64,000 bases of DNA, taken from an uncultured Planctomycetales bacterium. Lineage in GTDB: Bacteria > Omnitrophota > Gorgyraeia > Gygaellales > Profunditerraquicolaceae. The translations under genes were made by a program, and so were the position numbers. This document shows positions 3,265 through 60,366 of this stretch, piece after piece; position 1 is the stretch's first letter; each line of letters begins with the position of its first letter. Location of the stretch: the NCBI GenBank assembly GCA_964542785.1, contig CAZIUK010000001.1:197115-261114 (forward strand), written 5' to 3'. The notes below the pieces were generated by a model. That model was given only the letters and a program-made list of their open reading frames with translations. It was not told the DNA's origin and made no database searches.

Positions 3265-3269
3265 TTTGA

Positions 3270-3383: not shown

Positions 3384-4544
3384 ATGATGGAAGAGCAATT
3401 AGCTATAATTAAGCGCGGTGCAGTTGATATTATTTCTGAAGAAGAGTTGCGCAAGAAGCTTAAAGAAAGCATTAAAACCAAAAGGCCGCTTAAAGTAAAA
3501 GCAGGCTTTGACCCCACTGCTCCTGACTTACATTTAGGGCATACTGTTCTTTTACGTAAGCTCCGTCAATTCCAAGATTTAGGCCATGAGGTCTATTTTT
3601 TAATCGGAGATTTTACCGGAATGATTGGCGACCCTACTGGCCGCTCTGAGATAAGAAAGCAACTCACCCGACAAGAAGTTGCTCGCAATGCCTTAACTTA
3701 TAAAAAACAGGTTGCAAAGATTCTAAATTTACGCAAGTTAAAAATAGTCTTTAACAGCAGATGGTTTAGCCGTTTTTCAGGCACAGATATCTTAAAATTA
3801 ACTACTCACTCCTCAATCTCTCAGATTTTAGCCCGCGATGATTTTAAAAAACGCTATACCTTAGGAGAGAATATCTCTATGTTGGAGTTTATGTATCCTT
3901 TGCTGCAAGGTTATGATTCGGTTGTCTTAAAGGCGGATATTGAAATTGGCGGGACTGATCAGATATTCAACCTTCTTGTTGGACGCGATATGCAAAAGGA
4001 CTTTAACCAACCTCAGCAGGTAGTTTTGACTATGCCGCTTTTAGAAGGTACCGATGGTACCCAAAAGATGAGCAAATCCTATTGTAACTATATCGGTATT
4101 AACGAACCGGCAAAAGAGATATTTGGTAAGGTTATGTCTATCTCAGATAACCTGATGCTTAAGTATTACGAACTGCTTACCGATGAGGATTTGGATAAAA
4201 TTAAAGGGATGCATCCGCGCGAGGCCAAAGTTAACCTTGCTAAAATTATCATTACCCAGTATCATTCTAGCGAAGCAGCGCAAAAAGAGGCGGATGAGTT
4301 TACGCGCGTTTTTTCTTTAAAAGAAATCCCGCAGGATATTCCAACATTTAAGGCAGACGCTACAAAAAATATAATAACAATACTTACGGAAAGTAAGCTT
4401 GCCTTAAGCGGAAATGAAGCGCGCCGTTTAGTTAAGCAGGGGGCTGTAAGTTTTAATAACATAAAAGTAGAGAATGAGGATTTTATCCCTAAGGAATCAG
4501 GCGTATTAAAAGTCGGCTCCCGCCGCTTCCTCAAAATCCTCTAG
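3384..4544 (+). CDS. tyrS: tyrosine--tRNA ligase
   Basis: HLGH (HIGH) and KMSKS class-I motifs; C-terminal S4-like domain. Confidence 0.93.
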
Positions 4545-4576
4545 GGGACGCTCCCCAAGGTACCACTCTCCAAAGG
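4544..4576. repeat. solo MITE terminal repeat (left-end type)
   Basis: GGGGACGCTCCCCAAGGTACCACTCTCCAAAGG, identical to the left TIR of the full copies; ends 8 nt before the next ATG. Confidence 0.6.
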
Positions 4577-4584
4577 ATTTTAGC

Positions 4585-4875
4585 ATGTTTTGGACCATAA
4601 TTGGCTCAACAGCAGCAACTCTAACCATGCTTTCTTTTATCCCGCAGATAGTTCGCTCCTATAAAAGCAAGCATGTTAAAGATATCAGCCCGGTTATGCT
4701 CTTTCAGCTCTCTTTAGGTGTCTCTTTATGGATAGCCTACGGCATACACCGCAAAGACCCTATAATTATCATCGCAAACTCCACAACCCTGCTTACGCTC
4801 TTAATCCTCATCTCAATGTATTTTCAGTATGGGGGACGCTCCCCAAGGAGCCACTCTCCAAAGGATTTTGAGTAA
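4585..4875 (+). CDS. SemiSWEET (PQ-loop) sugar transporter; last ~14 codons encoded by MITE copy C
   Basis: 96 aa, 3 TM; the PQ motif (LSFIPQIVRSYKSKHVKDIS) and YGIHRKDPIIIIAN match bacterial SemiSWEETs closely; C-terminus GGRSPRSHSPKDFE is translated from the MITE TIR. Confidence 0.8.
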   Translation: MFWTIIGSTAATLTMLSFIPQIVRSYKSKHVKDISPVMLFQLSLGVSLWIAYGIHRKDPIIIIANSTTLLTLLILISMYFQYGGRSPRSHSPKDFE

Positions 4876-4943
4876 AATCGTATAAAAAAATGCAAAAAAT
4901 CGGTCATTTTCGAAGAAGAGTGGTACCTCGGAGAGCGTCCCCC
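4832..4943. mobile_element. MITE-like element, copy C
   Basis: GGGGACGCTCCCCAAGGAGCCACTCTCCAAAGG ... GAAGAGTGGTACCTCGGAGAGCGTCCCCC. Confidence 0.7.
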
Positions 4944-6076: not shown

Positions 6077-6187
6077 GGGGACGCTCCCCAAGGTACCATG
6101 CTTCGGAGGTTTTTGCCCTAAAACCGCGTAATTTTTAATAAAAACAGTTGATTTTGGAGGGAGAGTGGCACCTCGGAGAGCGTCCCC
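6077..6187. mobile_element. MITE-like element, copy E
   Basis: GGGGACGCTCCCCAAGGTACCATGCTTCGGAGG ... AAAAACAGTTGATTTTGGAGGGAGAGTGGCACCTCGGAGAGCGTCCCC; 111 bp. Confidence 0.75.
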
Positions 6188-7436: not shown

Positions 7437-7547
7437 GGGGGACGCTCCCCAAGGTACCATGCTTCGGAGGTTTTGCCCTAAAACCGCGTAATTTTTAATA
7501 AAAACAGCTGATTTTGGAGGGAGAGTGGCACCTCGGAGAGCGTCCCC
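7437..7547. mobile_element. MITE-like element, copy F (near-identical to copy E)
   Basis: Differs from copy E by about 2 indels/substitutions; preceded at 7428-7435 by a CGTCCCC fragment of another right end. Confidence 0.75.
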
Positions 7548-28989: not shown

Positions 28990-29790
28990 TTGATGAATAA
29001 GATAAAGTTATCAGTAGTGGTTATAACAAAGAATGAGGAGGCGCGTATTAGAGCGTGTCTTGAGTCTGTTAAATGGGCAGATGAAATTATAGTAGTTGAT
29101 GATGAGAGTACGGATAAGACAGTAGAGGTTGTTAAGGGGTTTGGGGCTAAGGTTTTTGTAAGGATGATGGATGTTGAAGGAACTCATAGGAATTGGGCGT
29201 ATGCGCAGGCAAAGAATGAGTGGGTGTTAAGTTTAGATTCGGATGAGCAGGTTACAGAGGAGCTAAGAGAAGAGATTGGTAGGGTATTAGCCAACAAGCC
29301 GAGGAAGTTACTGTGCATCCACGCGCATTTTTAGATGGAACCTGCGGCCATTTAAAGTCAGATATTATTCATTATTCCTATCGGAGTTTTGAAGATTTTT
29401 TAGCTAAGCTTAACCGCCAGACTACTTGGGAGGCGCAAAAGTGGTATAATGCGAATAAACCAATGACATTAGGCCGCTTTTTATGGCGGACTTATGACCG
29501 CTTTATGCGTTCTTATTTTGGTAAAAAAGGATACAAGATGGGATTTATGGGTTTTGTGATTGCTTATTTTGCCGCGTTGTATCAATTTGTAAGCTACTTG
29601 AAATACCGCGAAATAATCCTTAATGGCGGACTTATGACCGCTTTATGCGTTCTTATTTTGGTAAAAAAGGATACAAGATGGGATTTATGGGTTTTGTGAT
29701 TGCTTATTTTGCCGCGTTGTATCAATTTGTAAGCTACTTGAAATACCGCGAAATAATCCTTAACAGGGACACCCAATCTGCTAAAGCTGC
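28990..29790 (+). pseudogene. waaE/kdtX-like GT2 LPS-core glycosyltransferase paralog, frameshifted, internally deleted and carrying a tandem duplication
   Basis: About 80% identical to the intact copy at 31021; frame breaks after ...LANKPRK; about 45 codons missing; same 3' end CTTAACAGGGACACCCAATCTGCTAAAG. Confidence 0.75.
29484..29763 (+). repeat. tandem direct duplication, 2 x 140 bp
   Basis: TGGCGGACTTATGACCGCTTTATGCG...GAAATAATCCTTAA repeated exactly; the period is not a multiple of 3. Confidence 0.85.
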
Positions 29791-29876
29791 GGGTGTCCCC
29801 AAATAGAAAGGAACGGGGACAGCCGTCCGATTGGCAAGTTGGGTGTCCCTAATATGAGGGTTGTGTTTTGGTCTTG

Positions 29877-29987
29877 GGGACATCCTCCAAGGTGCCAGGC
29901 TCCTTGTAAAAAAGGGGAATTTTGAAGAAAAATCCTTCAAAAACAGCCAAAAATCGTTGGAGAGTGGATACTTGGAGAGCGTCCCCC
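29877..29987. mobile_element. MITE-like element, copy G
   Basis: GGGGACATCCTCCAAGGTGCCAGGCTCC ... AAAAACAGCCAAAAATCGTTGGAGAGTGGATACTTGGAGAGCGTCCCCC; ends 7 nt before ATG 29995. Confidence 0.7.
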
Positions 29988-31020: not shown

Positions 31021-31788
31021 ATGGCTAATTTATCGGTAGTAGTTTTAACAAAGAATGAAGAGGCATGTATTGCAGAGTGTCTTGAGTCGGTGAAGTGGGC
31101 GGATGAAATAATCGTAGTAGATGATGAGAGTACTGATAAAACTTTAGAGATTGTTAAGCAATTTAACGCGAAGGTTTTTGTAAGGAAGATGGATGTTGAA
31201 GGAACTCATAGGAATTGGGCGTATGCGCAGGCGCGTAATCCTTGGGTTTTAAGTTTAGACGCGGATGAGTCTGTAACACCTGAGTTAAAGACAGAGATTG
31301 AACAAGCAATGAAGTCTGAGGAGTTTGTGGCGTTTAGTATTCCGTTACGTAATTATATTAGTAATTATTGGGTAAGGTATGGGGGGTGGTATCCTGCTTC
31401 TAAGGTACGGTTATTTAGGAGAGATAAGTTTAGGTATGAAGAAGTTGAGGTGCACCCTAGGGCTTTTATTGAAGGGAAGTGTGGGCATTTAAAATCGGAT
31501 ATAATTCATAAAGGATACCCTGATTTAGAGCACTTTCTTAATAGCGTTAATCGTCAGTCCACTTTGGAGGCAAAAAAGTGGATTAATACAGGGCGTAAGA
31601 TGAGCTTGGGGCATATAATTTGGAGGGCAGTAGATCGTTTCTTCAGGCGTTACCTGCGCAAGAAGGCCTATAAAGACGGGATGTACGGGTTTATAATCGC
31701 ATTTTTTGATACTTTATATCAAATATTAAGTTACGTAAAATACAAAGAAATGCTTAACAGGGACACCCAATCTGCTAAAGATATATGA
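31021..31788 (+). CDS. waaE: LPS core biosynthesis glycosyltransferase WaaE/KdtX-like (GT2)
   Basis: LSVVVLTKNEE...DEIIVVDDESTDKT...SLDADE matches KdtX/WaaE; 255 aa. Confidence 0.8.
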   Translation: MANLSVVVLTKNEEACIAECLESVKWADEIIVVDDESTDKTLEIVKQFNAKVFVRKMDVEGTHRNWAYAQARNPWVLSLDADESVTPELKTEIEQAMKSEEFVAFSIPLRNYISNYWVRYGGWYPASKVRLFRRDKFRYEEVEVHPRAFIEGKCGHLKSDIIHKGYPDLEHFLNSVNRQSTLEAKKWINTGRKMSLGHIIWRAVDRFFRRYLRKKAYKDGMYGFIIAFFDTLYQILSYVKYKEMLNRDTQSAKDI

Positions 31789-32348
31789 GGGTTGCGTTTT
31801 TGGATAGAGACGGGGTTATAAATAAATATCCGGGAGATAAGGCTTATGTAACATCTCTGCGGAAGTTTAAATTTTTACCCGGGGCAAAGAAGGCGATAGC
31901 GCTGTTAAGCAGGGGAGGGTATAAGATATTTGTTGCCTCTAATCAGGCAGGGGTTGGCAGGGGCATATATAGCCAAAAGACTTTAGACAAAATAACCTCT
32001 TTTATGCTTTTAGAGGTTAAAAAAGCAGGCGGGCATATTGATAAGGTTTATTACTGCACCCACCATAAGAAAGCAGGTTGCTCTTGCCGTAAGCCAAGGC
32101 CGGGGATGCTTAAGAAAGCTAAGCGCGAGTTTAAGATTAACCTTAAAAACGCTTATTTTATCGGCGATACAATCCGCGATGTGCTTGCCGCTAAAAACGC
32201 CGGGTGTAAGTCTATTCTTGTCTTCTCAGGGAAAGAGAAATTAAGGAATAAACTTAAGTGGGAGGTTGCCCCTGATTTTACCTTTAAGGACCTCTATAGC
32301 GCGGCAAAACACCTCTTAAAAGTTAAAAAAACTTTAATTAAATCTTGA
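31785..32348 (+). CDS. gmhB: D-glycero-D-manno-heptose 1,7-bisphosphate phosphatase
   Basis: FLDRDGVIN HAD motif; zinc motif C-x-H...C-x-C (CTHHKKAGCSCRKP). Confidence 0.9.
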   Translation: MRVAFLDRDGVINKYPGDKAYVTSLRKFKFLPGAKKAIALLSRGGYKIFVASNQAGVGRGIYSQKTLDKITSFMLLEVKKAGGHIDKVYYCTHHKKAGCSCRKPRPGMLKKAKREFKINLKNAYFIGDTIRDVLAAKNAGCKSILVFSGKEKLRNKLKWEVAPDFTFKDLYSAAKHLLKVKKTLIKS

Positions 32349-32406
32349 CAGGGGCTAGAATATCAGGTATAGTTAATTAACATAAATGTTAACTAACTAT
32401 GCTTAG

Positions 32407-33000
32407 ATGAATTACCTTAAAATCAGTAGATTAAGCAAGTTTTACTTTTCTTACCGCGATATCGCCAAGGCCCGCTGTATATCCTTGCCCTCAGCGCGGG
32501 TTGCCTTAAGCCGCCTTGTAAAAAGCGGAAGCATTATCCGCCTTAAAAGGGGCTTGTATGTTTTAGCCCAAAGGTTAAATTACTCTTCTCTTGAAGAGAA
32601 GTTTTTATTAGCCAACCTTATTCAGCCTGCTTCTTATATTTCTTTTATGACTGCTTTGAGTTTTTACGAAGTTACAACGCAACTTCAACGCAACTTTATA
32701 GAATCAGCAGGTTACCTAAGGACTAAGGAGGTAGAGGCAGGAGGGAATCTTTTTAACTATGTTAAGATAAAAAAAGATATTTACTTTGGGTTTATAAAGA
32801 CAAGCGGGTATTTTATCGCTACCCCGGAAAAGGCGTTCTTAGACGCTTTTTATCTAAAATCTTTAAAAAGGTATAACTTTGACCTTGCTTCAATTAATTT
32901 TAAGCGGCTTAATAAGGATAAACTTTTTCAGTTATCCCGCAAATACCCTTTACTAGCCCGCAAACTCTTATTAAAATATGGATACATTAAGAAGGCATGA
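32407..33000 (+). CDS. AbiEi-like antitoxin / transcriptional regulator (type IV TA)
   Basis: N-terminal wHTH-like (...ALSRLVKSGSIIRLKRGLYVL); overlaps the downstream AbiEii gene by 23 nt. Confidence 0.5.
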   Translation: MNYLKISRLSKFYFSYRDIAKARCISLPSARVALSRLVKSGSIIRLKRGLYVLAQRLNYSSLEEKFLLANLIQPASYISFMTALSFYEVTTQLQRNFIESAGYLRTKEVEAGGNLFNYVKIKKDIYFGFIKTSGYFIATPEKAFLDAFYLKSLKRYNFDLASINFKRLNKDKLFQLSRKYPLLARKLLLKYGYIKKA

Positions 33001-33625
33001 GATATTTGAGATAGAGGTTTTAAAGAAGCTTAAAGATAGGCAGCTTCTCTTGCCGCTCGTCTTTGTCGGCGGGACAATGCTTCGGCTCTGTTATGACCTT
33101 AATAGGTATTCAACGGATCTTGATTTTTGGTTTTTAAAAAAAGTAGAGCAAAGAGGGTATTTTAAAAAATTAAAAGATGCCTTAAGCGGCTATCAGATAA
33201 CTGATTCTAAATTAAAATTCAATACTATTCTCTTGGAGGTTCGGAGTAAAAATTATCCTAAACGGCTTAAGATAGAGATAAGAAGGCAGGTTAAAGATTT
33301 AGACCTTCAGGAGAGGATTGCCTTTTCTAAGTTTACTACTCTTCAGGTTGCGTTAAAGGCGCTTACTTTGCAGGGGGCAATGAAAGCTAAGATTGAGGCA
33401 GGGTTAGATAGAAAAGATATCAGGGATTTTTATGATATGGAGTTTTTGTGCCGTCAGGGAGCAGAGGTTAAGGCAGGAGAGAAGGAGTTAGAGAAGTTAA
33501 AGGAAATTATCTTAAGTTTTAAGGCGCAAGATTACAAGGTTGCCTTAGGCTCACTCCTTGAAGAGGAAGAACGAAAGTATTACGTAAAGAATGGGTTTGA
33601 GTATCTATTAAGCAGGCTATCCTAG
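32978..33625 (+). CDS. AbiEii-family nucleotidyltransferase toxin (DUF1814)
   Basis: LVFVGGTMLRLCYDLNRYSTDLDFW matches the KGGTAL..RFSEDLDF NTase motif. Confidence 0.75.
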   Translation: MDTLRRHEIFEIEVLKKLKDRQLLLPLVFVGGTMLRLCYDLNRYSTDLDFWFLKKVEQRGYFKKLKDALSGYQITDSKLKFNTILLEVRSKNYPKRLKIEIRRQVKDLDLQERIAFSKFTTLQVALKALTLQGAMKAKIEAGLDRKDIRDFYDMEFLCRQGAEVKAGEKELEKLKEIILSFKAQDYKVALGSLLEEEERKYYVKNGFEYLLSRLS

Positions 33626-33735
33626 GGGACGCTCCCCAAGGTACCACTCCGCTTTCAAAAATGCCTGTTTTTGATAAAAATTATTCAATTTTTGCCCAAA
33701 AGTCAATGGAGAGTGGCTCCTCAGGGAGCGTCCCC
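33625..33735. mobile_element. MITE-like element, copy H
   Basis: GGGGACGCTCCCCAAGGTACCACTCC ... GTCAATGGAGAGTGGCTCCTCAGGGAGCGTCCCC; starts at the AbiEii stop codon. Confidence 0.75.
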
Positions 33736-33754: not shown

Positions 33755-34846
33755 ATGAGGGTATTGATTGTTTATGCTTCAGCAGGCGCGGGGCACAGGC
33801 GCGCAGCAGAGGCAGTTTATGATTATTTAAAGGCTAATCGTCCGGATTTATCTTTAAAGATTATTGACGCCTTAGATAGGACGAATGCTCTGTTTAGGTT
33901 TGATTATACCGTAGGGTATTCTTTTCTTGTTAGGTATGCGGTTGGGCTTTGGAGGTTTGCTTTTTGGTTGACAGAGTTTAAGGCCTTTCGTTTTTTAAGC
34001 GCGCCGATTGCTACATTTGTAAATAATATCAACTCTTTAAGCTTTATCCGCTACCTTATCCGCAAAAACCCCGACTATATTATCTCTACTCATTTTCTCT
34101 CAGCGGATATTGCCGCGTTATTAAAGCGCAAGAAAAAGATTACCTCAAAGTTGATAACGATTATTACTGACTTTGGCGTTCATCCTTATTGGATTGCCCA
34201 AGGGACTGATTTTTATGTTGTGGCGTCTGATTTTACTAGAAGGCGGCTTTTAAGCGAGGGGGTTAGGGAAGAAAGGATAAAAGTATTCGGCCTTCCTTTT
34301 CATCAGAAGTTTTTGAAAGACTTTGACCGCAAGGCGCTGGCAGAGAAAATCGGGATTAATCCGGATAAGTTTACGGTTATGCTTATGACCGGAAGTTTTG
34401 GCACTGGGCCGTTAAAGAAGATTGCCCGGATGCTTTCTTTTAAGGCGCAGGTGTTGGTGGTTTGCGCGTCTAATGAGAAGTTGCGCAAGGGGTTTTTAAG
34501 GGAGAGATTGCCAAATGTGAAGGCCTTTGGGTATATAAATAATACTGAAGAGCTTATGGCGGTTTCTGATTGCATTGTGACAAAGGCAGGGGGCTCTACT
34601 ATAGCTGAGATTATTAATATGGGGTTAGTCCCGATTTTTATCTCTATTATCCCGGGACAGGAGTCTGGAAATGTTGAAGCAATGCAGGATATGGGGGTTG
34701 GTTTTGTCCCGAAAAACCTTAAAGAGTTAAGGGATATAATTATAGTTTTGAAGAATAACCCTGCCAAACTTGAAGAGATGCAAGAGAGGATAGAGGGGGT
34801 AAAAAAACCTTTTGTCTGCCAGGAGATATCTAATGTTATACGTTAA
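33755..34846 (+). CDS. MGDG-synthase/UgtP-like glycosyltransferase (GT28)
   Basis: MRVLIVYASAGAGHRRAAEAV N-term; C-terminal GT28 motif TKAGGSTIAE. The ORF track start 33671 lies inside the MITE; ATG 33755 preferred. Confidence 0.75.
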   Translation: MRVLIVYASAGAGHRRAAEAVYDYLKANRPDLSLKIIDALDRTNALFRFDYTVGYSFLVRYAVGLWRFAFWLTEFKAFRFLSAPIATFVNNINSLSFIRYLIRKNPDYIISTHFLSADIAALLKRKKKITSKLITIITDFGVHPYWIAQGTDFYVVASDFTRRRLLSEGVREERIKVFGLPFHQKFLKDFDRKALAEKIGINPDKFTVMLMTGSFGTGPLKKIARMLSFKAQVLVVCASNEKLRKGFLRERLPNVKAFGYINNTEELMAVSDCIVTKAGGSTIAEIINMGLVPIFISIIPGQESGNVEAMQDMGVGFVPKNLKELRDIIIVLKNNPAKLEEMQERIEGVKKPFVCQEISNVIR

Positions 34847-36644
34847 GGTTGTTTTAGGGTTGCCGTTGGATTGTTCTTTTGATTATTTTGTGCCGAAAGA
34901 ATTAGAAAAGGAGGTTTCTGTTGGCGCAAGGGTCTGGGTTAATTTCCGTAATAAAAAGTCAGTCGGGTATATAGTTGGATTAGCAAAGAGGACAAAGATA
35001 AAGAAGGTTAAAGAGGTTTTAGGGTTGATTGATAAGAGTCCTTTGTTAAGCAAGAATTTGCTTAAGCTCGCTCGTAATTTAGCTGATTATTACTGCTCTT
35101 CTTACGGCGAAGCGATAGAGGCAATGTTGCCTCAACCATTCCGTCAAGGTAAGCCGGGGGACGCTCTCCAAGGTGCCAGGCTTCCTTTGTCGGAGAGTGG
35201 TTCCTTAGGGAGCGTCCCCCAGGTATTAGAGGGGAGAGAGCCGAGTAAGAGGTGGGAGTTTTATATAAAAGAGTTAAAGAAGGCAGAAAGCGAAGGCAAC
35301 TCCGCAATAGTACTATTCAGCGATATGCAGACACTCTTAAAAGCAAAAGACATTTTTGAGAAAGCCCAAATTAAAGATATCTTCATTTTTCACCGCAAAG
35401 AGAAAGATGAGTCTTTGATTTGGCAGGAGGCGCGCCTTAAACAAAGGTGTGTTGTTTTAGGGACTCGCTCGGCTATCTTTGCTCCGCTTAATAACTTAAA
35501 ATTAATTATCATAGATCGTGAGGAAGATTCAGTTTATAAACAGGAGCAATCTCCTCATTATCATGCCCGCCAAATAGCCTTTATGCGCGCAAAAATAGAG
35601 GATGCCCAAGTTATTTTAGAAAGCACAAGCCCTTCTGTGGAAAGTTTTTTTCTTACACAAGAAAAGAAAGCTATCTATCAAATCTTAAACAGATTAAAGC
35701 CGTATCCACAGATATCTATAGTAGATACCAAGCGTATGCCCTATGCTGAGCGAAGAAGTAAGGCGATATTTCCAAGGGTACTAACAGATGCTATATTTTC
35801 TACTCTCTCCCAAGAGGGTAAAGTGCTTGTTTTTATAAACCGCAGGGGTTTTGCAACTTTTTCTGCTTGCCATAACTGTGGTAAGGCATTAAAATGCCCG
35901 GCGTGCAATACAAGCTTAGTCTATCACTATGACCAGAGTTTGTTAAAATGTCGTCATTGCGCTTTTAAAATGGCGCTTCCTGATATCTGTCCAAACTGTA
36001 ATGCCGGCTATATTAAGTATTCTGGTTTAGGGACGGATAAAGTTGAAAGCGAGCTTGCGCGCATATTCCCTCAAGCGCGTATTGGAGATGATATTATTGC
36101 CTCAGCAAGCGCAATACTAAAGGAAGAGGATAAGGATTTTGACTTAATCTGTGTCTTAAATATTGACAATGCCTTAAACCGCGTTGATTTTATGGCTGCA
36201 GAGAAGGTTTTTTATTTATTATCAGGGTTAGTTGCCTTAACATCTAAAAAAATAATTATCTTAACAACTTACCCCCGGCACCATATTTTTAAGTCTTTAG
36301 AAAAAAAAGACCCGCAGATTTTTTACGCGCAGGAGTTAAAGTTTAGGAAACAACTTAAATACCCTCCTTTTAGAAGTATGGCACTCTTAAAGCTTCGTGG
36401 AAGGGCTGAAGATAAGGTTAAAAAAGCAGCAGAAGGTCTATTTGAAAAGTTAAAAGAAGGTAGCAGAGGCATAGAAGCTCTCTCTGTAAATCCGGGGGAG
36501 CCCCCAAAACTGCGCAGTAATTATTACTGGCAGATATTATTTACCGCCTCAAGCCCGCTAACCTTAAGCAAGTTCTTAAAAAATAATTTAAAGGATGTAA
36601 AGTATTCGGGTATAATAGTTACGATTGATATAAACCCAATCTAG
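34833..36644 (+). CDS. priA: primosomal protein N' (PriA) homolog with degenerate helicase motifs and an in-frame MITE insertion
   Basis: N-term ...LPLDCSFDYFVP (3' DNA-binding domain), Cys-rich zinc region CHNCGKALKCPACN...CRHCAF...CPNCN; Walker A reads GREPSKRW and DEEH reads DREE. Confidence 0.8.
   Translation: MLYVKVVLGLPLDCSFDYFVPKELEKEVSVGARVWVNFRNKKSVGYIVGLAKRTKIKKVKEVLGLIDKSPLLSKNLLKLARNLADYYCSSYGEAIEAMLPQPFRQGKPGDALQGARLPLSESGSLGSVPQVLEGREPSKRWEFYIKELKKAESEGNSAIVLFSDMQTLLKAKDIFEKAQIKDIFIFHRKEKDESLIWQEARLKQRCVVLGTRSAIFAPLNNLKLIIIDREEDSVYKQEQSPHYHARQIAFMRAKIEDAQVILESTSPSVESFFLTQEKKAIYQILNRLKPYPQISIVDTKRMPYAERRSKAIFPRVLTDAIFSTLSQEGKVLVFINRRGFATFSACHNCGKALKCPACNTSLVYHYDQSLLKCRHCAFKMALPDICPNCNAGYIKYSGLGTDKVESELARIFPQARIGDDIIASASAILKEEDKDFDLICVLNIDNALNRVDFMAAEKVFYLLSGLVALTSKKIIILTTYPRHHIFKSLEKKDPQIFYAQELKFRKQLKYPPFRSMALLKLRGRAEDKVKKAAEGLFEKLKEGSRGIEALSVNPGEPPKLRSNYYWQILFTASSPLTLSKFLKNNLKDVKYSGIIVTIDINPI
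35157..35219. mobile_element. 63-bp mini-MITE (two TIRs, no core) inserted in-frame in priA
   Basis: GGGGACGCTCTCCAAGGTGCCAGGCTTCC-TTTGTC-GGAGAGTGGTTCCTTAGGGAGCGTCCCC; translated as GDALQGARLPLSESGSLGSVP. Confidence 0.7.
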
Positions 36645-36667: not shown

Positions 36668-37612
36668 ATGAAAATAGCATTTTTCGGCAGTTCATATTTC
36701 GCTGTCCCGGCACTTGAGGCGCTTATTAAAAATAAGCATAAAGTTTTTTGCGTTGTTACCCAGTCGGATAAGAAAAAGGGTAGGTACTTGCGTTTAGGGT
36801 ATACTGATATTAAGGCGAAAGCATTAGAGGCAAACCTAAAGGTTTTTCAACCAGAGAACGTCAATACCCCTAAGTCAGTTGAGTATTTAAAAAAGCTTAA
36901 CGTGGATATTTTTGTAATAGTCTCCTATGGCCAGATTTTGTCGCAGGAAGTTTTAGATATTCCAAAGGTATTCCCTTTAAATATTCACGCTTCACTCTTG
37001 CCTAAATACCGTGGTGCAGCGCCTATAAATTGGGCAGTGATAAATGGCGAAAAGGTTACGGGTGTAACTATTATGCAGGTAACTAAAAAGATGGACTCCG
37101 GCCCGATAATCTTACAGCAAAAAATAGATATTTTAAATACGGATGATTCTTGTTCTTTGGAATTTAAACTGCGTGATTTAGGCGCGGATTTGTTGTTAAA
37201 AGCTCTTTCCTTGATAAAGGGTAAGAATTATAAATTAATAGAACAGGATGAAAGAGAGGTTGTCTTTGCCCCTAAGCTTAAAAAAAGCGACGGGCTTATT
37301 AATTGGGAGATGCCTGCGCAAGAGATAGCCAATCTTATCCGCGGGGTTCAGCCTTGGCCGGGAGCTTCTACATGTTATAACGGAAAACTATTAAAGATTT
37401 ATAAAGCAAAGCCTCTTGACTGTAAGTTACCTCAAGTCGATTCTTGTTCTTTTGGAGGAATAGTGTTGGTGGGTAAAGAAGGGATAACCGTAAAAACAGG
37501 AAAAGGATTTTTACTGATTGAGGAGTTACAGCTTGAAGGCAAAAAAAGGCTGACCGCAGGAGAGTTTCTCTTAGGCCACGAGATTAAAATGGGGACAGCG
37601 ACTTTTTTTTAA
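36668..37612 (+). CDS. fmt: methionyl-tRNA formyltransferase
   Basis: N-term MKIAFFGSSYFAVPAL; formyltransferase SLLP/HASLLPKYRG motif; C-terminal domain. Confidence 0.92.
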   Translation: MKIAFFGSSYFAVPALEALIKNKHKVFCVVTQSDKKKGRYLRLGYTDIKAKALEANLKVFQPENVNTPKSVEYLKKLNVDIFVIVSYGQILSQEVLDIPKVFPLNIHASLLPKYRGAAPINWAVINGEKVTGVTIMQVTKKMDSGPIILQQKIDILNTDDSCSLEFKLRDLGADLLLKALSLIKGKNYKLIEQDEREVVFAPKLKKSDGLINWEMPAQEIANLIRGVQPWPGASTCYNGKLLKIYKAKPLDCKLPQVDSCSFGGIVLVGKEGITVKTGKGFLLIEELQLEGKKRLTAGEFLLGHEIKMGTATFF

Positions 37613-37629
37613 AAAAAGTCGCTGTCCCC
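37591..37629. terminator. perfect 19-bp-stem palindrome GGGGACAGCGACTTTTTTT/AAAAAAAGTCGCTGTCCCC (repeat family, cf. 60304)
   Basis: Inverted repeat with A/T tracts; overlaps the last 7 codons and stop of fmt; a partial third arm follows at 37632-37650. Confidence 0.6.
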
Positions 37630-37703
37630 CTGTCAAAAGTCGCTGTTCCCAAAAAAGCAAAAAAGGATTGCATAATTAATAGCTTGTGCTATAATTTTTT
37701 TCT

Positions 37704-38729
37704 ATGCCAGAACTTAGAAAAGATCCGGTTATTGGTAGGTGGGTTATAATCGCTACAGAAAGGGCGCGTAGGCCTGATTATTTTAACGGCGAGAGTCATG
37801 AGCCTGTAGTAGAGAAGTCTTGCCCATTTTGTGAAGGGTTAGAAGAGCAGACCCCTAAAGAGATTTATGCCTTAAGGCCGCGGGGGACTGCGCCTAATAG
37901 CCCTGGGTGGGATTTAAGGGTTGTACCGAGCATAGCCCCTTTTTTAAAGGTAGAAGGAGAGTTAGACCGCCAAGGAAAAGGCCTTTATGACATAATGAGC
38001 GGGATTGGCGCTCATGAGATAATTATTGAAACTAACAAGCATATTGCTAATATAGCTGATTTAACCTTAGATCAGATTACTAAGGTTTTAAAGTGCTATA
38101 CGGATAGGATTTTAGATTTAGAGAAGGATGAGCGTTTTAAATATGTTTTGGCTTTTAAGAATTATGGCGGGGCTGCAGGTGGAAGCAAGATAAGGCATGC
38201 GCGTTCGCAGTTGATAGCTACTCCTGTAAACCCTAAGAGGGTAAAAGAAGAACTTGCTGGAGCAAGACGTTACTTTGATCACCATGAAAGGTGTGTTTTT
38301 TGCGACCTTATCAGGCAGGAGCTTGAACAGAAGTCGCGTTTAATTTTAGATCTAGACGGGTTTGTTGCGGTTAGCCCATTTGCCGCAAGGTTTCCTTTTG
38401 AGACTTGGATACTTCCAAAAAAACACAGCCCTGATTTTACTTCTCAGGATAGTAAGTCCTTAGAAAATCTTGCTAAAATGATGAAGATCGTACTTTTAAA
38501 ATTAAAGAAGGGTTTAAATGACCCGTCTTATAATTATATTATTCATACTGCTCCTTTTAGGCGTAAAAAAGTCGGCTATTGGAAGACGATTGAGCATGAT
38601 TATCATTGGCATATTGAGATTATGCCACGCCTTACACGCATCGCAGGTTTTGAATGGGGGACAGGGTTTTACATTTGCCCGATAGCTCCAGAGGAAGCGG
38701 CTAAATTTTTAAGAGAGGTAGAAGTATAA
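37704..38729 (+). CDS. galactose-1-phosphate uridylyltransferase-like (GalT/HIT family) paralog 1, HPH motif changed to HAR
   Basis: DPVIGRWVII..RP, CPFCEG zinc motif; IRHARSQLIA where GalT has HPHGQ. Confidence 0.75.
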   Translation: MPELRKDPVIGRWVIIATERARRPDYFNGESHEPVVEKSCPFCEGLEEQTPKEIYALRPRGTAPNSPGWDLRVVPSIAPFLKVEGELDRQGKGLYDIMSGIGAHEIIIETNKHIANIADLTLDQITKVLKCYTDRILDLEKDERFKYVLAFKNYGGAAGGSKIRHARSQLIATPVNPKRVKEELAGARRYFDHHERCVFCDLIRQELEQKSRLILDLDGFVAVSPFAARFPFETWILPKKHSPDFTSQDSKSLENLAKMMKIVLLKLKKGLNDPSYNYIIHTAPFRRKKVGYWKTIEHDYHWHIEIMPRLTRIAGFEWGTGFYICPIAPEEAAKFLREVEV

Positions 38730-38730
38730 A

Positions 38731-39726
38731 ATGGGAGAGTTAAGGCGTGATCCTATTGTTGGCAGGTGGGTGATTGTAGATAAAAGTAATACCCCAGCCA
38801 TAAAAGATTTTCAATATGAGAAGAATACCTCTAAAGGTGGGGTATGCCCTTTTTGTTACGGTAATGAAGCTATGGTTCCTCCTGAAGTAGAGTGTTTTAG
38901 AGAACCTGGGACAAGCCCTAATACCTCAGGCTGGTATGTAAGGACTGTGCCGAATAGGTTTCCTGCTTTGCAGATAGAAGGAGATTTAGACAAAAGGCCG
39001 GTAGGGCTTTATGATATGTCTAATGGAGTTGGCGCCCATGAGATAATTATTGAAAGCCCTTATCATGCTAAAGATATTTCAGACCTATTGCCCCATGAAG
39101 TAGAAAATTATATAAGGATGTGCCGTAACCGCGCCTTTGATTTGGCTAAGGATAAGCGTTTTAAATACTTAATGTTTTTCAGGAATTTTGGGCATGGAGC
39201 AGGCGCTTCTTTAGAGCATCCGCATACACAGTTAATCGCTCTGCCTATGGTCCCAAAAAATGTGGCAGAGGAGATTATTGGAGCAAAGAGTTATTTTGAT
39301 TATAAGGAGCGTTGTATCTTCTGTGATATGATAAGGCAAGAGATGCAGGAGAAAGAGCGCATAATATTTGAGAATAAGTATTTTTTGTCCTTTTGCCCTT
39401 TTGTTTCACGTTTTCCTTTTGAGATTTGGATTATGCCTAAAAAGCACAACGCTTACCTTCGTTTTGTTTCAGATGAAGAGATAAAGCTCTTAGCTGAAAT
39501 TTTAAAAGATACGGTAAGCAGGGTAAAAAATATTTTTCCGGATATTTCTTATAATTATATACTTCATGTTGCACCCATTAACGGAGATGTTGATGTAGAG
39601 TATTATCATTGGCATATTGAGTTTATGCCTAAATTAACACAAGTTGCAGGTTTTGAATGGGGGACGGGGTTTTATATTAGCCCGATTACGCCTGAGCGAG
39701 CTGCAAAATATTTAAAAGGAGGGTAA
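38731..39726 (+). CDS. galT: galactose-1-phosphate uridylyltransferase-like paralog 2 (canonical HPH)
   Basis: [17 protein letters not shown]. Confidence 0.8.
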
Positions 39727-39730
39727 TAGA

Positions 39731-40783
39731 ATGGCAGTAAAGGTAGGTATCAATGGTTTTGGGAGGATTGGCAGATTAGTTGCCCGAGCGATATTAGAGA
39801 GAGGCTCTAAAGATATAGAGTTGGTGGCGGTAAATGACTTAACAGATGCAAAGTCAAACGCATACCTTTTTAAATATGACTCCGTACACGGAAGGTTTAA
39901 TGGAGAGGTTAATGCTATTTCGGGTGATACAATCTCAGTCAACGGAAAAGAGATTAAGGTTTTAAGTAAGAGAGACCCTTCAGAGTTACCTTGGAAGGAT
40001 TTAGGGGTTGAGATAGTGGTTGAGTCAACCGGGCTTTTTACCGTCAAAAAAGATGGAGTGAATAAAAAGGGTAAGGAGGTAAAGGGCGCTGAGAATCATA
40101 TAACTAAAGGTGGGGCAAAGAAGGTTATTATTTCTGCTCCGGCTGAAGGCGAGGATATAACTATTGTTATGGGGGTGAATGAGGGTAAGTATGACCCTAA
40201 GAACCATAATGTTTTATCTAACGCCTCTTGTACGACTAATTGCTTAGCACCGGTTGCTAAGGTTATCAATGATAATTGGGGGATAGTAAAGGGATTGATG
40301 ACTACTATCCATGCTTATACTAATGACCAGAAGATTCAGGATATGGCGCATTCGGATTTACGCCGCGCGCGCGCTGCCGCAGTCTCGATGATACCTACTT
40401 CTACGGGTGCGGCTAAGGCGATATCATTGGTTATTCCGGAGCTAAAAGGTAAACTTGATGGTTTTGCAATCCGGGTACCGACACCTAATGTTTCTGTGGT
40501 GGATTTAACCCTTTCTTTAGCAAAGAAAGCTACGGCTGAAGAGTTAAACGCAGCACTTAAGGCAGCTTCAGAAGGTGCCATGAAAGGTATTTTAGGTTAT
40601 ACCGAAGACCCTGTAGTTTCAATTGACTTTAATCATTGCCAATTAAGTTCAGTAGTTGATGCTAAGAGTACCAAGATTATACAGGATGATTTTGTAAAGG
40701 TACTTTCTTGGTATGATAATGAGTGGGGTTATTCAAACCGCGTAGTTGACCTTTGCGAATACATCATCCGCAAAGGCCTCTAA
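39731..40783 (+). CDS. gap: glyceraldehyde-3-phosphate dehydrogenase
   Basis: [22 protein letters not shown] active-site motif. Confidence 0.95.
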
Positions 40784-40795
40784 AACCTAATCTTG

Positions 40796-40835
40796 GGGGA
40801 CAGGCACTTGGAGAGCGTCCCCTAGGGGACAGGTT
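40796..40835. repeat. MITE fragment (right-end type) plus GGGGACAGG motifs
   Basis: GGGGGACAGGCACTTGGAGAGCGTCCCCTAGGGGACAGG. Confidence 0.4.
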
Positions 40836-60298: not shown

Positions 60299-60303
60299 GT
60301 AAA

Positions 60304-60344
60304 TAGGGGACAGCGACTTTTTATAAAAAGTCGCTGTCCCCTAT
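60304..60344. terminator. palindrome GGGGACAGCGACTTTTTAT/AAAAAGTCGCTGTCCCC after lipA (same family as 37591)
   Basis: 19-bp perfect stem, 6 nt after the lipA stop. Confidence 0.65.
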
Positions 60345-60366
60345 TAAAAAGCCTGTTTAATATTCC

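Follow-up and report, generated by a model that had tools for sequence, protein, structure and literature searches.

The 64,000-nucleotide stretch of contig CAZIUK010000001.1 analysed here (the window), from a bacterium of the phylum Omnitrophota, carries priA, the gene of the replication-restart protein PriA, and inside it a palindromic element that is translated as part of the protein. The priA open reading frame (ORF; 34812..36644, forward strand) is uninterrupted across the element. It begins with an upstream TTG at 34812 in the ORF list; from the ATG at 34833 (34833..36644), its product is a 100% match to the database protein P0001 (603 residues, Candidatus Omnitrophota). The core of the element, at 35157-35219, reads GGGGACGCTCTCCAAGGTGCCAGGCTTCC / TTTGTC / GGAGAGTGGTTCCTTAGGGAGCGTCCCC and is a near-perfect palindrome translated as GDALQGARLPLSESGSLGSVP. 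The sequence and the ORF bear out a preliminary description of this DNA, in which two terminal inverted repeats joined by TTTGTC are read through in frame within priA.

Three Pfam domains are detected in the window PriA, all above their cut-offs: PriA_3primeBD (PF17764, 5e-26), Zn_ribbon_PriA (PF18319), and PriA_C (PF18074). The protein aligns with Klebsiella pneumoniae PriA (PDB 4NL4) at E = 1e-63. Window residues 5-112, ending ...RQGKP, correspond to chain residues 21-128, and window residues 132-418 correspond to chain residues 237-523, with LEGREPSKRWEFYI paired with LAGITGSGKTEVYL. The 3' DNA-binding domain (3'BD) is encoded by 34845..35132 on the forward strand (residues 12-107 in 610-residue numbering; PF17764), which aligns with chain residues 21-128. 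About 109 canonical PriA residues between the 3'BD and Walker A, including the winged-helix domain, are absent, and the gap is spanned by ~20 repeat-encoded residues. The element is located between the 3'BD and the helicase core, as first described, and the Walker A position that follows (35232..35255, forward strand) is indeed degenerate, with GREPSKRW in place of the GITGSGKT of K. pneumoniae PriA (Omnitrophota consensus, LxPxxRWxxYL). The Walker B/DExH position (35514..35528, forward strand) reads DREED in place of DEEHD. The functional superfamily 2 ATPase motifs (Walker A GxGKT and DExH) are missing from the aligned positions of the window PriA, and from these motifs Omnitrophota PriA is probably not an active ATPase or helicase.

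The preliminary description had asked whether the insert is a surface loop. In the AlphaFold2 model of the window PriA (mean predicted local distance difference test score (pLDDT), 82), residues 117-133 form a disordered coil with pLDDT below 50, linking the 3'BD to the strand that opens lobe 1 (residues 137-141). Compared with canonical PriA of Escherichia coli and K. pneumoniae (PDB 4NL4 and 6DGD), the Omnitrophota protein shares the 3'BD, the helicase-like lobes, the cysteine-rich zinc region (CRR), and the C-terminal domain, but lacks the ~109 residues that include the winged helix, has degenerate Walker A and DExH motifs, and bridges the gap with a repeat-derived linker. In an alignment of 28 Omnitrophota orthologs, the winged-helix domain (~109 residues relative to K. 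pneumoniae PriA) is missing in 28 of 28, and the same 28 have degenerate Walker A (consensus LxPxxRW) and DExH (D-x-E-E/Q-D/N) motifs. The eight CRR cysteines are invariant (8 of 8) in the same alignment. A literature search on PriA of Omnitrophota returned nothing relevant.

The window priA and its ortholog at locus L003 (loci of related genomes are given L numbers) are 89% identical in amino acids and 74% identical at the third positions of conserved four-fold codons; judged by these codon positions, the gene is under purifying selection. This low amino-acid change relative to four-fold change, the intact Pfam domains, the invariant CRR cysteines, and the sharing of the element with relatives show clearly that the ORF is a functional gene rather than a product of misassembly. 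An assembly artefact or a pseudogene was considered and rejected on the domains, the cysteines, and the presence of the same in-frame element in L002, L003, L004, L081, and L082.

The inverted repeat extends beyond the core to CCGGGGGAC...GTCCCCCAGG (35154..35223, forward strand), matching the family consensus, and this whole element encodes the entire interdomain linker, P115-P136. The length of 63 nt given before holds for 35157-35219 as read; the element is 63-70 bp overall, and because no empty-site allele exists, "63 nt" is a conventional figure, not the measured size of an insert. All parts are on the forward strand. The left arm (35157..35185) belongs to family D4 of the repeat list, as placed by copy alignment, and the right arm (35192..35219) to family D2 (I10-I12), which is 85-93% complementary to other left arms. 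The 6-nt loop TTTGTC (35186..35191) takes the place of an A+T-rich spacer of ~50 nt in full copies of the family; relative to these, the priA copy keeps both arms and lacks ~48 nt of the A+T-rich centre.

As RNA, the element is predicted to fold into an almost uninterrupted hairpin (-48.6 kcal/mol, z = -6.7), a stability reached by 0 of 200 shuffles, in agreement with the mRNA hairpin proposed at the outset. As DNA, the fold has -21.7 kcal/mol and z = -4.8. The window priA copy is not flagged in an intrinsic-terminator scan, and the stem is followed by CAGGTATTAG, with no T-run. The scan accepts loops of 3-8 nt and misses most of these elements, so that it says little on them; several orthologous PriA hairpins carry T5-T7 runs, and their loops of 13-18 nt are outside its definition. 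With Rfam, no family reaches threshold in the window, and only sub-threshold matches to generic hairpins are obtained, on L013 and L016. The element is no described RNA family.

Membership in a repeat family, also part of the preliminary description, is firmly established. The window has 13 occurrences of the 12-mer GGGGACGCTCYC (at most one mismatch), where 0.16 are expected, and 0 of 100 shuffles reach 13. Besides the priA copy, the family has at least eight copies in the window, five full (~111 bp) and three partial. In the full copies, which are 111-nt doublets, a spacer of ~50 nt separates two arms of ~28 nt. One of them (33625..33735), whose first base is the final base of the AbiEii stop codon, lies upstream of a gene resembling monogalactosyldiacylglycerol synthase and is orthologous to L003 8814-8924. 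Repeat search and copy alignment place three others in intergenic DNA at 4832..4942, 6077..6187, and 7438..7547; a diverged full copy, also intergenic, is at 29873..29986, and its left arm is the most similar to the priA left arm. The partial copies are a solo left arm (4544..4571, forward strand) that begins at the last base of the tyrS stop codon, a solo arm between the gene ending at 40783 and pgk (40806..40822, reverse strand), and a copy at 3269 that reads GGGACGCTTCCGAAGG. All copies outside priA are intergenic or touch ORF ends, 0-40 nt past stop codons, with housekeeping neighbours such as rpsA, tyrS, and pgk. An alignment of 11 copies with their flanks shows no target-site duplication at the ends; the symmetric CCTN...NAGG is part of the palindrome. 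The region shared with L003 is too rearranged for insertion polymorphism of the family to be scored, and the conserved copies are those at 33625 and in priA.

The linker was compared across the phylum. The DNA between the LRKGK and RW/RMPVYL motifs was extracted from 80 fetched Omnitrophota priA loci and from 3 more obtained by exact protein look-up. In the protein alignment, peptides resembling the terminal inverted repeats are found at the same place in PriA orthologs 50-67% identical to the window protein. The window's element also stands in frame at this position in L002, L003, L004, and L082, with ~60-66 nt between the GGGGAC and GTCCCC ends. In L081, priA contains a complete 111-nt element in frame, with 20-bp perfect arms and a spacer homologous to that of the intergenic copies in the window. 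Since a complete element is present at the same site, the simplest account of the 63-nt form in the window is that a full copy lost 48 nt (16 codons) internally. Occupation of the site down to ~50% PriA identity argues against the lineage specificity that had been considered. The preliminary description had also regarded a filled position in distant taxa without the repeat family as contrary to its reading, and this is half the case: the position is occupied, but by those genomes' own repeat families.

Linker hairpins of these other families have perfect arms of 13-28 bp and spans of 43-83 nt, with at least eight distinct arm sequences: GGGGTCAGATTTATTTTTC (L010 and L013), GGGGTCAGAGCGAATTTTC (L012), GGGACCGTTTCTATTTTTC (L011 and L037), GGGAACGGTTCTGTTTTT (L014), GGGGACGGTTCTCT (L016 and L076), GGGGACGTTTCT... 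(L017, L026, and L047), GGGGACGCTTCGG (L027), and GGGACAGCGACC (L043, with a second hairpin nested in the loop). Solo arms, duplicated arms, or decayed copies are found in the linkers of L023, L025, L016, L005, and L056. On a rough neighbour-joining tree, ~18 of 43 taxa of a derived clade have long perfect arms in the PriA linker, in a patchy distribution, and many others have remnants, while repeat sequences are present in the linker of 0 of 15 taxa from basal lineages. In these basal lineages the ORF is uninterrupted and its linker ordinary, and the idea that the hairpin is an old intergenic space between two fused genes was rejected on this ground.

In four species, the PriA linker is filled by GGCCTCGCCCCTCTGGGCTCGGCAC...CCTCGGTCGC, a repeat of 54 nt that is not palindromic and is translated as GLAPLGSALPRAGCPRS: L007 (10349-10402), L008 (2064-2117), L019 (6426-6479), and L021 (754-800). 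This repeat also occurs in L016 (13952-14005), where it is intergenic, just past a stop codon.

Across species, the core is offset by 2 to 21 nt past the GK codon, and each of the three reading frames occurs. Therefore, no peptide is conserved. The linker is of similar length with and without repeats (26-37 residues in most species, median ~30-32; from GK to RW, ~28-36 residues in orthologs with no repeat and 32 in the window), indicating that the repeat replaces linker sequence and adds no length. The "21-residue insert" of the preliminary description is thus better regarded as a substitute for linker sequence that repeat-free orthologs also possess.

The PriA linker is a hotspot for such hairpins. 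In 1.16 Mb of fetched related DNA, there are 72 perfect GGGAC-type hairpins (arms of at least 12 bp), 17 of which are well inside ORFs of at least 200 residues. Sixteen of these 17 are in the PriA linker, a stretch that makes up ~0.5% of the sequence. The sole intragenic hairpin outside PriA is small, GGGGACGGTTCTC-ttt-GAGAACCGTCCCC at L066 3553-3581, and is read in frame (GGTVLFENRP) in a GT9 heptosyltransferase gene. The 55 extragenic hairpins are mostly 0-40 nt past a stop codon, often with A-run and T-run flanks.

The contents of the linker turn over rapidly. Three pairs with PriA proteins 86-94% identical (L037/L023, L020/L025, and L076/L008) differ in linker content; in the first pair, the hairpin is intact in L037, but one arm has been lost from L023, where a solo arm from a different family has been gained. 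In eight genomes, the PriA copy matches species-specific variants of intergenic copies at most 10 kb away (for example, GGGGACGTTTCTACTTTT in L026 and GGGGACGTTTCCCT in L047), which speaks for acquisition or conversion on repeated occasions rather than for a single ancient insert that has stayed as it was. Nested copies or solo arms of two families are present in a single linker in L043, L016, and L023, and solo arms or nesting also in L025. Repeats cluster and nest at intergenic sites as well (L084, L076, L066, L036, and L043), which suggests that an existing repeat copy attracts further copies.

The elements resemble repetitive extragenic palindromic (REP) sequences and their hairpin-forming doublets (REPINs). 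The expected doublet structure, an inverted REP pair with a spacer, is found in the window, and the priA copy is a doublet with a 6-nt spacer. Many copies have NTAG before GGG(G)AC (for example, CTAGGGGAC, ATAGGGAC, GTAGGGGAC, and TGTAGGGAC), with GCCG before the core in the priA copy, and most arms contain GACG, the reverse complement of CGTC. In metagenomes, 24 family members found by sequence alone are nearly all at most 30 nt from a stop codon, and mini forms of 58-62 nt are common between genes. A metagenome scan with the 17-mer GGGGACGCTCCCCAAGG gave at least 120 loci, most single matches being chance hits on high-GC contigs; none of the 120 listed loci encodes PriA, which makes the scan unsuitable as an unbiased check on the hotspot. 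The exact 17-mer is found in inverted pairs in L097, L115, L152, L177, and L193, on contigs of 59-63% G+C against ~40% in the window, and the same REP sequence seems to live in rather different genomes.

REPs are partnered by REP-associated tyrosine transposases (RAYTs) of the Y1 (HUH) type, and candidates of this kind are associated with related families in Omnitrophota. L083 encodes a 225-residue Y1_Tnp protein (PF01797, 1e-18) that scores best with the NCBIfam REP_Tyr_transpos model (66.6 bits, against 35.6 bits for IS200). A hairpin, AATAGGGACGGTTCTA(17)TAGAACCGTCCCTATT, is upstream of the gene, and the stop codon lies inside another arm copy. The Y1 homolog of L077 is flanked by CTAGGGGACGCTTCGG and TAGAAGCGTCCCCTGG, inverted, and a REPIN of the same sequence is 900 bp away. 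The HUH (HVH) and YIELNPV motifs are visible in the translated Y1 sequence. A protein search with the L077 RAYT gave 447 homologs, of which those with a source name are all from Omnitrophota, and four more loci (L084-L087) were fetched. All six Y1 genes examined (L077 and L083-L087) are bracketed by GGGAC-type repeats, and the repeat sequence changes with the gene. The window family (GGGGACGCTCCCC) is close to the families of L077, L084, and L087. A longer element or an autonomous insertion sequence with the same termini was not found in the window or in the 87 fetched PriA and RAYT loci.

A conserved sequence, TTAGATTTTCCCTCCTTTTACGTCTATTnATAGTAGAAGGAGGGATTTTTTATG, lies between the upstream REP and the RAYT start in L077 (8200-8267), in L083 (20702-20754), and upstream of position 3001 in L084-L087. 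Its CCCTCC can pair with GGAGGG and hide the ribosome-binding site. Such pairing, predicted from sequence, may provide translational control of the transposase.

Taken together, the observations probably reflect selfish REPIN DNA that is tolerated in a linker for which length, not sequence, matters, and that turns over fast at this hotspot. The window element would be an internally deleted REPIN, a doublet of REP-type palindromes with a GGGGAC...GTCCCC core, and Omnitrophota REPINs would be the non-autonomous partners of RAYT-like Y1 transposases, usually residing just past stop codons. In Omnitrophota PriA, a disordered linker of ~20-35 residues would stand in for the lost residues that include the winged-helix domain. 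In the large derived clade, this linker would serve as a landing pad for REP/REPIN sequences, subject to repeated insertion, nesting, truncation or deletion, and replacement, with a filter for multiples of three and absence of stop codons, so that each species' linker is built from the repeat family of its own genome. An early seeding event and relaxed constraint may have opened the site, and REP-into-REP insertion or gene conversion would then keep the hotspot; one early colonisation could thus have made the site a lasting landing pad. The window copy would be the 63-nt form of the local 111-nt element, transcribed, translated as GDALQGARLPLSESGSLGSVP, and tolerated as a floppy tether. Mobilisation of the window family by a RAYT is presumed, and any effect of the hairpin on priA expression would be at most modulatory.

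Several observations weigh against this explanation. The NCBIfam score of the L083 protein, 66.6, is below the curated RAYT cut-off of 80. In a tblastn search of the window and all loci with the L083 RAYT, matches are obtained only in L083 and L077, and no Y1 gene is present in the 64-kb window; none of the 120 listed homologs among the 447 is on the 646-kb contig of the window. The REP-RAYT association is shown for related Omnitrophota families, and a link between the window GGGGACGCTC family and a RAYT is suggested by analogy with such families, for example GGGGACGCTTC in L077 and L084. No empty-site allele and no polymorphism were seen, and mobility is thus putative. In addition, tolerance alone cannot explain why only one such hairpin is found in ~1000 neighbouring genes. 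The PriA hairpins GGGGTCAGATTT (L010 and L013), GGGGTCAGAGCG (L012), and GGGAACGG (L014) occur nowhere else in the fetched DNA, and these PriA-only variants depart from the common REP at 2-4 positions, every change having its mirror image in the opposite arm. The hairpins of L010 and L013 are identical at 64 of 66 positions, against 48% identity, near saturation, at four-fold third positions, and neutral tolerance explains this likeness no better than hairpin selection or nucleotide-precise targeting would. The two loci are not mutual nearest relatives. Between L012 and L010, the inner stem differs on both arms and the loop is kept.

These points bear on two related alternatives. The PriA linker could be a specifically targeted or selected home of REP hairpins, either through RAYT-type insertion of single-stranded DNA with near-nucleotide precision or through an advantageous hairpin that is re-recruited after decay; we regard this as a possibility worth keeping, though a tentative one. 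The benefit might lie, as one possibility, in attenuation coupled to translation, by which the amount of a restart protein without helicase activity is set. A narrower proposal, that the hairpin is a selected cis-acting element of priA (an attenuator, a translation-dependent terminator, a barrier to mRNA decay, or a ribosome pause site) re-recruited from a 3'-end module, the peptide being incidental, is in our view a serious rival, although an unlikely one. It would account for the concentration of 16 of 17 intragenic hairpins in one linker, for the use of three frames, by which the peptide is not the conserved feature, for the L010/L013 identity, for the two-sided stem changes with a kept loop between L010 and L012, and for the GGGGTCAGA and GGGAACGG variants, which are confined to PriA and keep perfect symmetry. 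The T-run after the stem in many copies (L010, L013, L076, L026, and L017), the same modules at gene ends, where they could terminate or stabilise transcripts, and the very stable predicted fold point the same way. However, an intact hairpin is present in none of the 15 basal taxa and is lacking in over half of the species in the derived clade (minimum free energies are weak, ~-8 to -20 kcal/mol), indicating that it is not required, and close relatives with PriA 86-94% identical differ in its presence. The window copy, moreover, has no T-run and is not terminator-like in the scan. Palindromes can stay symmetrical without selection through self-templated (quasipalindrome) correction, and the mirrored changes could persist by such hairpin-templated repair.

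The preliminary description had called the element a miniature inverted-repeat transposable element (MITE). In the classical sense, this would be an internally deleted derivative of a DDE transposon, here with one recent jump into priA that was in frame by chance. Terminal inverted repeats of ~28-30 nt around a variable A+T-rich centre, dispersed copies, and the existence of a short derivative would suit a MITE. We nevertheless consider this highly improbable: target-site duplications are absent at every aligned copy, copies directly past stop codons are REP-like, and related families flank Y1 transposase genes in a REP-RAYT arrangement, so that genomic position and Y1 association in relatives point to a REP/REPIN. 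The occupied site in orthologs down to ~50% PriA identity and the full-length form in L081 show that the insertion is neither recent nor unique. A single ancient insertion inherited vertically, with the "families" arising by divergence in situ and kept symmetrical by self-templated repair, would explain the absence from basal taxa and presence across one derived clade, the restriction of symmetrical variants to PriA, and the conserved loops between L011 and L037 and among L010, L012, and L013. It is hard to reconcile with the match of PriA copies to nearby species-specific intergenic variants in eight genomes (as with GGGGACGTTTCTACTTTT and GGGGACGTTTCCCT), with nested hairpins and solo arms of two families in one linker (L043, L023, and L016), with the non-palindromic 54-nt repeat at the site in L007, L008, L019, and L021 and between genes in L016, and with offsets and reading frames that vary among species, and we give it hardly any credence.

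The favoured explanation, tolerated REPIN DNA in a length-dependent linker, places the Omnitrophota elements beside the REP-RAYT ("REPtron") organisation described by Bertels & Rainey 2011 (PMC3116915) and Di Nocera et al. 2013 (PMC3733652). Shared features are short palindromic units paired in inverted, hairpin-forming doublets, the presence in one genome of several families that cluster and nest, a location mainly just downstream of ORFs, and, for families related to that of the window, Y1/HUH genes bracketed by the same repeats, whose sequence co-varies with the gene. REPs carry a conserved GTAG (or CGTC) tetranucleotide at one end (PMC3733652), whereas the 5' tag in Omnitrophota is mostly NTAG or NNAG followed by GGG(G)AC and not strictly GTAG; the arms are longer, up to 28 bp and perfect, and the transposases, of ~225 residues, are under the NCBIfam RAYT cut-off. 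A literature search on palindromic repeats in Omnitrophota gave nothing relevant, and to our knowledge the phylum has not been described as REPIN-bearing.

The preliminary description held a repeat translated within such a gene to be unusual, but in-frame REPs and Rickettsia palindromic elements (RPEs), notably in replication and repair genes, have already been published (PMC3733652, PMC10969869). Intragenic REPs are single or dimeric, in frame, and encode 20-30 residues, for which a position in flexible linkers has been argued; genes of replication and repair (UvrABCD, RecBCD, PolA, and DnaE2) are enriched among their hosts and are often the only REP-tagged ORFs of a species (PMC3733652). The gene priA is absent from the text and tables of that paper. 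The Omnitrophota case shares an in-frame REP of ~20-30 residues in a flexible linker of a replication gene, but involves one linker position in dozens of species, with different families and fast turnover, whereas the published cases are scattered sites in different genes. RPEs (RPE-1, ~100-150 bp) occur in many unrelated genes and have no dedicated transposase known (PMC10969869). They are likewise palindromic repeats in frame in housekeeping genes, translated and compatible with protein folding; the Omnitrophota elements, in contrast, are almost wholly extragenic save for the PriA linker (1 of 17 intragenic hairpins outside PriA) and encode no conserved peptide, with three frames used. Pneumococcal SPRITE elements (PMC10969869) are similar as sequence-conserved stem-loops that are G+C-rich, have A/T-run flanks, and sit at gene 3' ends. 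They are not reported as translated linkers, and a T-run is lacking in the window priA copy; the same differences apply to the other terminator-like hairpins. Among the latter, Neisseria DNA uptake sequence (DUS) pairs and mycobacterial TRIT are terminator-like dispersed hairpins.

Further repeat families are present in the window, at 37591-37629, 60302-60345, and 29765-29850. A second REP family, GGGGACAGCGAC, at 37591-37646 (19-bp arms, 1-nt loop) overlaps the 3' end of fmt, its left arm encoding the C-terminal residues MGTATFF and the stop codon of that gene, and is followed by a further arm; its sister copy at 60302-60345 has 22-bp arms and no loop. A third hairpin family, AGGGACACCCAA(62)TTGGGTGTCCCT, is found at 29765-29850 of the window, L003 8184-8269, L001 3423-3508, L006 1466-1551, and L082 3263-3348, and begins 1-2 nt past the priA stop codon in L001, L006, and L082.

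The AbiEi/AbiEii toxin-antitoxin pair (32323-33625; ORFs 32407..33000 and 32978..33625; PF13338 and PF08843) is missing from the syntenic region of L003, and the extra 1.3 kb in the window stops exactly at the left end of a REPIN, at 33622-33625. The repeat region at ~29-31 kb is rearranged relative to L003, with breakpoints near hairpin elements. It includes a 140-bp tandem duplication, 99% identical, at 29480-29759 and a 274-nt direct repeat (81%) among glycosyltransferase fragments at 29005-29278 and 31027-31300. Two tandem paralogous genes, the first clearly GalT-like, occupy 37704-38729 and 38731-39726 and share DNA segments 75-79% identical (families D8, D13, D17, and D18).

What is new here is the host gene, priA, and the phylum, Omnitrophota, for a known in-frame REP phenomenon; recurrent re-population of a single linker position across a phylum is, as far as we found, undescribed. 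In-frame palindromic repeats are usually seen as one-off accidents, whereas here one linker of PriA, an essential protein of replication restart, is rebuilt repeatedly from each genome's REP family, and dozens of species have repeats in the PriA linker while ~1000 neighbouring genes are almost untouched. The evidence is consistent with a RAYT/REPIN system in an uncultivated phylum for which we found no published description. The linker can be viewed as a natural experiment in which selfish hairpins supply "spacer" peptide to a protein after domain loss, and as a well-delimited case in which to ask why replication and repair genes are favoured by intragenic REPs. If the linker were a targeted or selected home, this old bias would become a concrete, testable system. 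A PriA without the winged-helix domain and the ATPase motifs bears, finally, on replication restart in these small-celled bacteria.

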